From: Dictyostelium discoideum
Lineage: Eukaryota
Reading direction: 5' to 3'
Assembly (NCBI GenBank): GCA_000004695.1
Contig: CM000151.3
Span: 7,200,001 to 7,264,000 of the forward strand
Length of the DNA stretch: 64,000 nt
Part shown: positions 1,990 through 5,259 of the stretch, in pieces
Layout: the number at the start of each line of letters is the position of its first letter
Numbering within the stretch: the stretch's first letter is position 1
Notes under the pieces: generated by a model
Seen by the model: the letters and a program-made list of their open reading frames with translations, nothing else
Database searches by the model: none
What the model was told of the DNA's origin: nothing
Program-made: the position numbers and the translations under genes

Positions 1990-2405
1990 TTTTTATAAAA
2001 TTAATATAATATAAATAAATCTAAAATAAATCTAAAATAAAATATAATTTTTGGAATTAAAATTTAAACAAAAAAAAAAAAAAACAATAAAAAAAAAATT
2101 CTGAAAATGGTTAAATATAATTATTTATTAAGGTATATTAAAATTTTTAAAACAAGTTCAAACAATGGATTATAAATAGATATGGAAATTTTTATTTTTT
2201 TATTTTAAATACTTCAAAAACAATAATTATGATATTCTTCAAGTTAATTTTTTTTGATTTTTATTTAACAAAATTTGGAAACTTTTTATTTTTAAACGAC
2301 ATATCTCAATGAAAATAAAAAAATTAAATTTAGTTTTTCACAACACCCTACCCAGAATGTAATTATCTTTCGTTTCTCGCTAAAATATTAAAAAAAATTT
2401 TTTGG

Positions 2406-2454
<49 letters not shown>

Positions 2455-2545
2455 CACAAAAATTATTTTTCATTTTTTTTTTATTTTTTTTTTATTTTTT
2501 TTTTTTCATAGTTTAATCACTTCTACCGAAAAAAAAAAAAAAAAG

Positions 2546-3503
2546 ATGTTTTTAATTAAACCATCATTAACAATTAAAAATAGTAAATTAATTTGTACAA
2601 TAAATAATAGAAACATTAATGGATTAATTAATATTACAAGATCATATTCAACAACAAATGATGTTGTTGTTGATGAAGATGAAGCTAAAGATAAGAAATC
2701 ACATAAACAAATGAGGAAAGAAGAAGAGATTAGAAAAGCAAAAGAACAAGAAGAGAATAAAGTTTATGGTGCATCAAGTTTAAGTTTAGTTTCATCAGCT
2801 GAAAAAGTTGAAACTAAAAAAGTTAATCAAAGAAGACTTTTAAAACCTAAAAACCCAAGAGAACCAAGAGAATTTCTTGCACATAAAAAATTTTTACCAC
2901 TTTCATTAACTGAACAACAACAAAAATTAAATATCAACAGGGAAGATTTAAAACAACAAATTGATTCAAATAAAATTAATAATATAGATACATTTGTTAT
3001 TGATCTTAGATCACCAAAAGAATTTTATGCTGATTTACCAATTAAAGTTAGTCAAAATATACCAAGTATGTTATTCTTACTTAATTAATGATATATATAT
3101 ATAATAGTAATAATAATTTCATTATTATATAAATATTAATATATTAATATTTTCATTTTTCATTTTTTTTTTTTTTTTTTTAGTGGAATATCCAAAAATT
3201 GTTAGAGAAATTAATACACATTCACAAAAAAGAGGTAAAAAAACAAAAGTTGCTGAAACTAAAAAAGTTTATGATGCAGATATGGAGTTAAACTTTTGGC
3301 AAAAGGCATTAAAATTAACATCACTTCAATGGAAAGAAAAATATGGTTTTGAAAAAGTAAAACCAACCGATAATATCATTTTTTATTCAGCAAATAATGG
3401 TAGAGGTTCCCAAGTTGCAGAAATGGCCCATAAATCTGGTTTTCCAAATGCCAAATTTTTATTAGGTGGTATTCGTCAATGGAATAAACATAATTCTCAA
3501 TAA
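2546..3503 (+). CDS. Rhodanese-domain protein, likely mitochondrial, with a non-canonical active-site loop; 2 exons approx 2546..3065, 3184..3503
   Basis: The ATG at 2546 sits in an AAAATG context after a poly(T) tract. The N-terminus (MFLIKPSLTIKNSKLICTINNRNINGLINITRSYSTT) looks like a presequence. Donor GTATGT is at 3066 and acceptor TTTTTAG at 3183. The C-terminal FVIDLRSPKEF...IIFYSANNGRGSQVAEMAHKSGFPNAKFLLGGIRQW matches the single-domain rhodanese / TSTD family. Confidence 0.65.
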
Positions 3504-3756: not shown

Positions 3757-4473
3757 TTATTTTGAAAAAGTATTTGAAATTAAATTATTAAATTGATCAA
3801 TTGGTATTGATTGAATATTTGATTGAGATAATGAATTGATTGAAGCTTCAGTGATAGTATTAAAAGTATTATTTGCAAGATTGGAAGCAGTGTTGGTAGC
3901 AACTTTTTCAATGACATGATTGATAATTTTCTCTGTAGGAATATTTGAAGCGATAGTATGTGGAATTGAAGAAGAGAGTGGACCAACGACAGAAGAGGTA
4001 CCAATATTACCATTGGCAGCATCGATAACACTTGAACCAACGGATTTAATTACGCTTGAGGCAGCATTGGTGGCGGCGGCAGCAGAGGTTGGAAGGGATA
4101 CGTTATTTAAAAGTTTAGCTAATTGATACCATTTTCTAACTTTAATGAAACCATAGATACCAACAACTGCAAGACAACACATAACAATACCATTACGAGT
4201 ATTACTTAATCTAACATCATTGAATAGGGTTAACAATGATTTTGCTTGTGGATTATGTTGATCGGTTGCAAGAATCTCTTGTAATGTTTGAATACCCTTT
4301 ACATTTTCACCTAATCTATAACAAGCGAATGAGTAACTATATCTATATAAATAACTATTTGGTTCAATCTCTCTTAATTTACCAAGGAATTTCAATCCTC
4401 TCTTTATATCAGCTCTACTACTACTATGTATTAAACTTTGAGCATATTGAAAAACTTGATCTTTTTGGTTGTT
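3757..4473 (-). CDS. Fis1 (mitochondrial fission 1) homologue: TPR-like core, one TM, then an unusually long Ser/Thr/Asn-rich C-terminal tail. The 5' end is unresolved: there is no in-frame ATG, and the frame opens right after a TGA at 4474-4476
   Basis: ...NNQKDQVFQYAQSLIHSSSRADIKRGLKFLGKLREIEPNSYLYRYSYSFACYRLGENVKGIQTLQEILATDQHNPQAKSLLTLFNDV..IVMCCLAVVGIYGFI aligns with human/yeast Fis1 (QFEYAWCLVRSKYNDDIRKGIVLLEELL...YVFYLAVGNYRLKEYEKALKYVRGLLQTEPQNNQA + TM). The ORF track begins at a TTG (4395). Upstream in frame there are 26 further Fis1-like codons back to a TGA. An acceptor AG is available at about 4461-4462. Confidence 0.6.
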   Translation of the reverse strand, partial: NNQKDQVFQYAQSLIHSSSRADIKRGLKFLGKLREIEPNSYLYRYSYSFACYRLGENVKGIQTLQEILATDQHNPQAKSLLTLFNDVRLSNTRNGIVMCCLAVVGIYGFIKVRKWYQLAKLLNNVSLPTSAAAATNAASSVIKSVGSSVIDAANGNIGTSSVVGPLSSSIPHTIASNIPTEKIINHVIEKVATNTASNLANNTFNTITEASINSLSQSNIQSIPIDQFNNLISNTFSK

Positions 4474-4661
4474 TCATAATTTTATCATCTTCATCTTCTT
4501 CAATTGAATTATTATTATTACCATTATTATTATTATTACCAAGATTACCTTTATAATCAATTTTAAAATATTTTAATTCTTCACGAATAATTTCTTCTGA
4601 AACATTTGGTGGTATAACAATTTTACCTTTTTTTTTTAAAGAAATAAATTAATATAAAATT

Positions 4662-4707
<46 letters not shown>

Positions 4708-4951
4708 TTTACTTACCAGTTCTATAATAATTTAAAATTACATCAAATGAAGCACCATTACGATCAAAAAAGTATTCACCTTTTTTATCTGGTTTTCTAA
4801 GGTGTCTATTATTTGGATGAAAGATATTACCAAGTAAAGTCTCTGGGTATTGTGCCAATGTTGATGGCATTACTTCATATTTTACACCTCCAACATTTAA
4901 AATAATTGGATCTTCATCATGGTTATCAATATCAATTGGATAAGATGACAT
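4424..4951 (-). CDS. KCTD-type BTB/T1 (potassium-channel tetramerisation) domain protein; 2 exons approx 4717..4951 and 4424..4626. Its last ~50 nt overlap the start of the Fis1 reading frame (+1 frame)
   Basis: MSSYPIDIDNHDEDPIILNVGGVKYEVMPSTLAQYPETLLGNIF...DKKGEYFFDRNGASFDVILNYYRTG|GKIVIPPNVSEEIIREELKYFKI is a textbook KCTD BTB fold. The donor is GTAAGT at 4716 and the acceptor follows a poly(A) intron (AAAAAG|GT) at 4627. The stop is TAG at 4424-4426. Confidence 0.6.
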
Positions 4952-5189
4952 TTATTTATTTATTTTATATAATATATATTTGTATCTAAATAGAATTTAT
5001 AAAATAAAAAAAAAAAGGAAAAAAAAAAAAAAATAAAATTTATAAAAAAAATAAAAAAAAAAAAAAATTAATTTGGGCGCAAATTTTTTTTTTTTTTTTT
5101 TTTTTCGTTGATTCTTATCTTAAAAATTAAAAAATTAAAAAATTAAAAAAAAAAACACAAACCACACCAACGAATATACTTATCACACG

Positions 5190-5259
5190 ATGATTAATAA
5201 TTTACTTAAAAGGTCAAAAATAAATAATATAATATATAATAATAAAAGATATTTTTGTA

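Follow-up and report, generated by a model that had tools for sequence, protein, structure and literature searches.

The minus strand of positions 3757-4951 in the stretch of DNA analyzed here (64,000 nucleotides, chromosome 2:7,200,001-7,264,000 of Dictyostelium discoideum AX4, in the following called the window) corresponds to the annotated gene DDB_G0277011, which is mapped to chromosome 2, 7203757-7204951, in the supplement of PMC6830349. We propose, with a probability of about 0.9, that this interval is a single two-exon gene coding for a fusion of a T1-type BTB domain with a Fis1-like region, and that its reading frame is broken in the window by a single surplus A in the reference sequence of AX4. 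After correction the gene product is a membrane protein of 367 amino acids in which a T1-type BTB domain is followed by a poly-N/acidic linker, a Fis1-type tetratricopeptide repeat (TPR) bundle, one transmembrane (TM) helix and a tail of 122 amino acids. All features of this gene described below are located on the minus strand.

In the window as deposited, the frame encoding the BTB domain continues from position 4626 to a TAG at 4426-4424, and the Fis1-like frame opens after a TGA at 4476-4474 and ends with the TAA at 3759-3757. This overlap had been recognized in an earlier note made from the DNA letters alone, and its coordinates for the open reading frames (ORFs), the TGA and an 88-nt candidate intron were all found to be correct when checked on the minus strand. 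Its statement that the Fis1 frame lacks an in-frame ATG holds in so far as no ATG able to start the TPR domain is present; an ATG does occur inside the TM helix (M227). The two frames overlap because the AX4 reference contains a run of five As (A5, positions 4462..4466) instead of four (A4). As seen in the DNA alignment, the window reads CCAAAAAGAT at this site, whereas both D. cf. discoideum (L001) and the D. discoideum assembly GCA_054883475.1 (L002) read CCAAAAGAT. When one A is deleted from 4462-4466, the translation is identical, residue for residue, to the 367-amino acid protein KAM9946206.1 (P0121) of GCA_054883475.1.

The resulting gene structure is simple. Exon 1 (4717..4951) starts with the ATG at 4951-4949 and encodes amino acids 1-78 plus one nucleotide of the following codon, i.e. 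the N-terminus and the larger part of the T1/BTB domain; the orthologues all share the N-terminal sequence MSxxP[IV]DI. Intron 1 (4627..4716; 90 nt, GTAAGT...AAG, 7.8% GC) is the sole real intron. L001 and L002 have the intron at the identical position in their gene models, and its length varies only in a poly-T run. In the orthologue from D. cf. discoideum (L001:3235-3360) intron 1 is about 45 nt longer and contains AT-rich insertions of 6 nt and 38 nt. Exon 2 (3757..4626) is open throughout and ends with the TAA at 3759-3757, provided that one A is taken out of the run.

Over the 7.2 kb compared, GCA_054883475.1 shows no substitution and nine insertions or deletions (indels) relative to the window. 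Eight of them fall into non-coding homopolymer runs with a length of at least about 10 nt, and the A4/A5 difference is the only one in a short homopolymer. The dictyostelid orthologues are in frame across the site without exception (13 of 13, ...EEDEDxKIMKQPKDQ[IV]...), and transcripts from Physarum, Ceratiomyxa and Cavostelium are likewise in frame. A4 is clearly both the ancestral and the functional state.

A homology search with the product expected from splicing of the 88-nt interval retrieved full-length relatives from every dictyostelid genome sampled, namely from D. cf. discoideum, D. citrinum, D. dimigraforme, D. firmibasis, D. purpureum, Polysphondylium violaceum, Tieghemostelium lacteum, Heterostelium album, Acytostelium subglobosum and Cavenderia fasciculata as well as from two EukProt entries. 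These relatives read straight across the 88-nt interval (...KIDYKGN...(N-rich)...EEDEDxKIMKQPKDQ[IV]xxYAxSLIHS...). The same order of T1/BTB domain, acidic linker, Fis1 TPR region and TM helix is present in transcripts of Physarum polycephalum, Ceratiomyxa fruticulosa and Cavostelium apophysatum and in four metagenomic proteins (P0014, P0142, P0175 and P0179). To find the non-dictyostelid fusions, 1.84 billion representatives were scanned exhaustively with HMMER and names were then looked up; the transcripts among the fusions are de novo assemblies. A word-indexed search with an alignment of the Fis1 part yielded one protein, the Physarum transcript, the candidates probably having been swamped by low-complexity words. 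Thus, the suspicion voiced in the earlier note that the BTB and Fis1 parts are joined in a single protein has been borne out, their order being kept in 13 dictyostelids, the three further species and the four metagenomic sequences. The alternative considered there, in which Fis1 would be made from an independent mRNA with an upstream first exon, is unsupported. In each of the three species represented by transcripts, one mRNA carries the fusion. Since Physarum, Ceratiomyxa and Cavostelium also possess it, the fusion is older than the Dictyostelia. As judged from these sequences, T1/BTB-Fis1 is a conserved amoebozoan fusion.

The Fis1-like TPR domain is encoded by 4195..4461 (amino acids 134-222) and comprises helices at residues 133-144, 149-165, 170-183 and 186-199 and the start of a helix at 204. 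When a profile built from 13 sequences was compared with the sequences in the PDB, it matched human Fis1 (1PC2, E=5.4e-15), mouse Fis1 (1IYG, 1.9e-12) and yeast Fis1 (1Y8M, 6e-8), in each case as a single stretch that covers Fis1 residues 30-140 and for 1PC2 includes the TM segment. An AlphaFold2 (AF2) model of the Fis1 part with a predicted local distance difference test score (pLDDT) of 83.7 was used for a Foldseek search of the PDB, in which the top 22 entries were all Fis1 and generic TPR proteins ranked lower. The Fis1 matches had root-mean-square deviations (rmsd) of 1.4-2.0 Å over 86-101 aligned columns and TM-scores (target) of up to 0.88. On the strength of both searches, the Fis1 homology seen in the earlier note is real. 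Fis1_TPR_C also scores above its Pfam threshold in several of the non-dictyostelid fusions (Physarum 40.7, Cavostelium 39.6, P0142 41.8, P0014 34.0 and P0179 30.3 bits). The homology begins at about residue 30 of Fis1, and in the AF2 model a conserved acidic helix (amino acids 119-129) precedes the TPR domain.

The T1-type BTB domain (4556..4906, amino acids 16-102) spans intron 1 and is recognized by the Pfam family BTB_2 (PF02214) with 76 bits compared to a cutoff of 21.4. In the AF2 model this region has a pLDDT of about 88. The closest solved structures found by Foldseek are the T1 domains of Kv1.2 and Kv1.3 (39-42% identity, rmsd about 2.4 Å, TM-score (target) up to 0.87), followed in the ranking by KCTD1 with 37% identity. 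Both the BTB_2 score and the T1 fold agree with the KCTD-type BTB/T1 identity given in the earlier note. Besides the orthologues, the closest T1 relatives in the homology search are large BTB/POZ expansions of Glomeromycota (Gigaspora, Dentiscutata and Rhizophagus), which are 40-58% identical over the domain and outrank animal Kv channels and KCTDs (hits P0015-P0090). DDB_G0277011 is discussed as a homologue of a 'Shaker voltage-gated potassium channel' in PMC6830349. We reject this 'Shaker/Shab' voltage-gated K+ channel label (PANTHER, PMC6830349): a scan of the D. discoideum protein with PF00520 for a six-TM channel domain gave no match, it contains one hydrophobic segment only, and the T1 domain is followed by a Fis1-like region.

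The T1 and TPR domains are connected by a linker (4463..4549, amino acids 105-133) which covers nearly all of the interval 4461-4548. It begins with a poly-N stretch and continues into the conserved acidic helix (EEDEDDKIMKQPK). Residues E122, E124, D125 and P132 of the linker are invariant in 15 sequences. The linker differs from that of D. cf. discoideum by an indel of 3 nt; in the poly-N stretch, one codon and one exchange (I to N) separate the two. The N-run evolves by triplet slippage and the adjoining acidic motif is fixed.

Directly after the TPR region follows the single TM helix (4138..4191, amino acids 224-241, GIVMCCLAVVGIYGFIKV) with the basic flank RKW behind it. It is the only 19-residue window with a Kyte-Doolittle hydropathy above 1.4, aligns to the TM segment of Fis1 and is continuous with a helix from residue 204 to 252 in the AF2 model. 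The arrangement described in the earlier note, a single TM helix with a long extension, was confirmed, since GIVMCCLAVVGIYGFIKV is followed by KVRKWY and then by 122 residues. This tail (3760..4125, amino acids 246-367) is rich in S, N, I, A and T and predicted to be disordered, with pLDDT values below 50 for residues 253-352. At its C-terminus it carries the conserved motif SNIQSIPxDQFNxLxSNTF[SK], and AF2 places a C-terminal helix at residues 354-366. In comparison with D. cf. discoideum the tail shows 13 synonymous and 8 non-synonymous changes, corresponding to a ratio of non-synonymous to synonymous polymorphism (pN/pS) of about 0.20 as compared to 0.08 in the T1 and TPR domains, and all indels in it are multiples of three. 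Composition and disorder pattern, the conserved terminal motif, pN/pS and the triplet indels together show that the tail is translated and under constraint and does not represent an intron or an untranslated region. The earlier note had thus been right in regarding an extension of about 120 amino acids as coding and as unusual for Fis1. Tails of 106-131 amino acids are found in 13 of 13 dictyostelids, whereas in most of the non-dictyostelid members only 1-15 residues follow the TM helix; about 40 are present in the Ceratiomyxa transcript P0129, which might be an artefact. Orthologues that end right after the TM helix, named in the earlier note as evidence that would speak against the tail, therefore do exist among most of the non-dictyostelid relatives, but all dictyostelids keep it. 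The tail is specific to the dictyostelids, which have lost the tail-anchor end.

The frame break has also been explained by splicing. In the earlier note an 88-nt intron (4548..4461) had been suggested, the removal of which would join the BTB domain directly to Fis1 in a protein of 338 amino acids. A GT (4548) and an AG (4462-4461) are indeed available, and excision rejoins the two frames in the A5 sequence (...KIDYK-D-QVFQYAQS...), but 35 different GT..AG intervals in the same stretch also give an open frame. The reservation made in that note, that the interval is less AT-rich than normal introns, is justified, as its GC content is 20.5% compared to 7.8% in intron 1; moreover, its donor GTAATC does not match the consensus. 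The interval is coding sequence that includes the motif EEDEDxKIMKQPKDQ, which shows little or no variation between Dictyostelium, Physarum and Cavostelium, and the A4 allele needs no splice at all. In an exact look-up in a collection of 15 billion proteins, the 338-amino acid fusion, the 145-amino acid BTB-only product, the exon-1 ORF and three prokaryote-style ORF calls in the Fis1 frame were absent, whereas the read-through product is present. Splicing of this interval is thus very improbable, and the frame break comes down to the one extra A. The deposited model of the AX4 gene (DDB_G0277011 / XP_642818.1 / Q550W4) takes another route: exons 4951..4717, 4626..4437 and 4417..3757 give exactly the 361-amino acid protein XP_642818.1 / Q550W4. 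This model stays in the shifted frame (KRSSFSICS) and returns to the Fis1 frame by a 19-nt GT..AG 'intron' (4418..4436), so that RSSFSICSN stands in place of DQVFQYAQSLIHSSS. A look-up of contigs encoding this model (P0122) returned none on record. In favor of the model are its deposition as annotation and the presence of the GT..AG boundaries, but Dictyostelium introns have an average length of about 146 nt, and 19 nt is far shorter than any known spliceosomal intron. Because of this length we regard the 19-nt 'intron' as a workaround of the annotation. In addition, the conserved first Fis1 helix DQVFQYAQSLIHSSS would be lost, and RSSFSICSN occurs in no orthologue. That such a 361-amino acid protein is made has next to no probability.

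The origin of the fifth A is less clear-cut than the gene structure. Most likely it is a base-calling or assembly error of the 2002/2005 Sanger reference. This is favored because AX4-derived lines differ in common from the reference at about 1,900 sites, which has been attributed to reference errors or clone differences (PMC3466296), because nothing else differs within the 7.2 kb, and because the gene is under purifying selection. With the same gene structure, A5 could instead have arisen as a mutation confined to the AX4 clone that was sequenced or to its lineage (AX4 or AX3). In this case AX4 would mainly make a soluble T1/BTB fragment of 145 amino acids (…KQPKRSSFSICSKFNT*), while AX2 and wild strains would have the intact protein. 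Such a genuine frameshift is possible, though we consider it doubtful. The AX4 reference does read A5, the automated AX4 gene model had to circumvent it, and AX4 has known differences to other laboratory strains, such as the duplication on chromosome 2. On the other hand, the absence of a second difference in 7.2 kb means that the change, if real, would have to be very recent, reference discrepancies common to all resequenced AX4 derivatives are on the order of thousands, and the purifying selection on DDB_G0277011 is clear. A third explanation accepts A5 as genuine and lets the full-length protein arise from it by programmed +1 ribosomal frameshifting or transcriptional slippage on CCA-AAA-AGA. 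The tRNA-Lys on AAA could re-pair in the +1 frame on A5, and the product would be the orthologous ...KQPKDQVF...; but no relative has the frameshift site, as the D. discoideum assembly without substitutions and D. cf. discoideum have A4 and the other species are in frame. Furthermore, the post-shift codon AGA is common in Dictyostelium and would not pause the ribosome, and five As are too short for efficient slippage of a polymerase. Recoding at this site is thus extremely improbable, and A5, whether error or mutation, is no designed feature of the gene.

Several points weigh against our interpretation of the locus as a T1/BTB-Fis1 gene disturbed by an erroneous A. The D. discoideum protein reaches 18.7 bits for Fis1_TPR_N and 18.6 bits for Fis1_TPR_C compared to Pfam cutoffs of 25 and 25.3, and dictyostelid proteins scanned singly score 18-24 bits compared to the Pfam Fis1 threshold of 25. 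Because they remain below these thresholds, the dictyostelid proteins are annotated only as 'BTB domain-containing'. The A4/A5 comparison is based on assembled sequences, which leaves room for the genuine AX4 frameshift discussed above. GCA_054883475.1 comes from an Illumina and Nanopore project in which AX2-214 and two tropical wild isolates of D. discoideum were sequenced (PMC12745789). From the absence of single-nucleotide differences to the window and from this strain list, we infer that the assembly is most probably AX2-214. The protein encoded by DDB_G0277011 is contained in the AX2 proteome, and AX4 supplied RNA data only (PMC6830349), so that detection at the protein level comes from AX2 and not from AX4, as would also be compatible with a genuine A5. 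Localization, topology, oligomeric state and a role in fission are proposed from homology only.

By homology to Fis1, the TM helix together with its basic flank might anchor the protein in the outer mitochondrial and/or the peroxisomal membrane, leaving the T1 and TPR domains on the cytosolic side as in Fis1. The similarity to human FIS1 and yeast Fis1p extends to the sequence signature (F/YxYAxxLIxS...DIxxG...L; YxxAxxxYRLxxY...L...P.N.QA..L) and to a helical TPR bundle placed directly before a single TM helix of moderate hydrophobicity that has a basic flank. The proteins differ at both ends. In DDB_G0277011 the T1/BTB domain, the poly-N linker and the acidic helix appear to replace the N-terminal arm or helix α1, and the T1 domain may take the place of the regulatory N-terminal arm of Fis1. 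It would probably oligomerize the protein and so turn the TPR region into a multivalent receptor; alternatively, like KCTD proteins, it may serve to recruit cullin-3. Among animal KCTDs an architecture with Fis1 and a TM helix as the C-terminal partner of the T1/KCTD BTB domain (Kv1-Kv4, KCTD1/5) was not found. At the other end, the dictyostelid proteins are not classical tail-anchored proteins, because 106-131 residues follow the TM helix as compared to about 3-6 in Fis1; the D. discoideum protein with its 122 residues departs from Fis1 in this respect and retains the basic flank KVRKW.

Outer-membrane proteins of the Tom22 type have a cytosolic N-terminus, a single TM helix and a C-terminal domain in the intermembrane space. 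A comparable course is predicted for the dictyostelid protein, the tail of which would have to cross the membrane (N-terminus in the cytosol, C-terminus in the intermembrane space) and expose its conserved motif on the far side. Both share the predicted layout of an extensive N-terminal part in the cytosol, a single TM helix and a hydrophilic segment at the C-terminus. In sequence the dictyostelid protein is unrelated to Tom22, and its tail of about 120 amino acids is far longer and of low complexity. A more far-reaching proposal, which we put forward as tentative and in its full form rather unlikely, is that T1/BTB-Fis1 represents the Fis1 orthologue of the Evosea amoebae (Dictyostelia, Myxogastria, Ceratiomyxa and Cavostelium) and acts as an obligate oligomeric, possibly cullin-3-coupled outer-membrane receptor that in dictyostelids carries a C-terminal motif across the membrane.

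A connection between Fis1 and KCTD-like proteins has emerged in yeast, where three independent Δfis1 strains each gained a premature stop in WHI2, which encodes a KCTD-like BTB protein (PMC6126876). With a KCTD/T1-type BTB domain and Fis1 in one polypeptide, the amoebozoan protein follows the 'Rosetta-stone' pattern of functionally linked proteins and gives an independent hint at this unexplained genetic link. If the pattern holds, Fis1 and BTB proteins of the KCTD/Whi2 type would act together, which could explain the repeated whi2 mutations in yeast fis1Δ. The BTB domain of Whi2 is highly divergent, and the parallel is drawn from the domain class only.

The gene itself was already annotated, and in this sense the 'fusion' is a single database gene. 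In the literature searched, no named Dictyostelium Fis1 and no BTB-Fis1 fusion was found, and DDB_G0277011 appears only through expression and proteomics data (PMC6830349). According to these data (files 3 and 10), the AX2 protein (log2 about -0.86) and the AX4 mRNA (log2 about -3) decrease in the course of cAMP-pulsed early development. Not found in this literature were the Fis1 identity of DDB_G0277011, the spread of T1/BTB-Fis1 across the Evosea amoebae and the dictyostelid loss of the tail-anchor end. The Fis1 identity has been hidden behind the labels 'BTB domain' or 'Shaker/Shab K+ channel', and the AX4 reference as well as Q550W4/XP_642818.1 are wrong at this locus, in that one A is superfluous, a pseudo-intron of 19 nt has been introduced and the first Fis1 helix is scrambled. 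Any knock-out, tagging or modelling based on the database sequence would use the wrong protein. Dictyostelium can carry out mitochondrial fission without the classical dynamins DymA and DymB, as was found with AX4 as the wild-type strain (PMC3492061), and DDB_G0277011 provides a concrete candidate Fis1 for this process. The fusion together with the dictyostelid loss of the tail anchor is an unusual variant of a textbook tail-anchored protein. Should A5 be real, AX4 would be a natural mutant of the T1/BTB-Fis1 protein, and AX2 and AX4 would differ in a mitochondrial or peroxisomal membrane protein.

The eight non-coding indels between the window and GCA_054883475.1 are located at window positions 732, 2454, 2482, 2544, 4704, 5016, 5033 and 5067, comprise 1-8 nt and affect poly-A or poly-T tracts; the one at about 732 is a 4-nt TTTC insertion within a poly-A tract. 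They could reflect either errors of homopolymer length in one of the assemblies or true slippage between laboratory strains. Upstream of DDB_G0277011, the 238 nt between its ATG at 4951 and a divergent ORF starting at 5190 on the plus strand (4952-5189, 11% GC, long poly-T and poly-A runs) look like a shared bidirectional promoter region. The divergent ORF encodes at least 302 amino acids including a long poly-N run, and in the AX2-like assembly it corresponds to a gene for 423 amino acids without a Pfam match. On the downstream side, a convergent gene for a rhodanese-domain protein (2402-3503, plus strand; Q550W5, 279 amino acids; PF00581 in the orthologous loci L001 and L002) has its 3' end at a distance of about 250 nt to the DDB_G0277011 stop codon, and the spacer between the two genes has a GC content of 3.5%.

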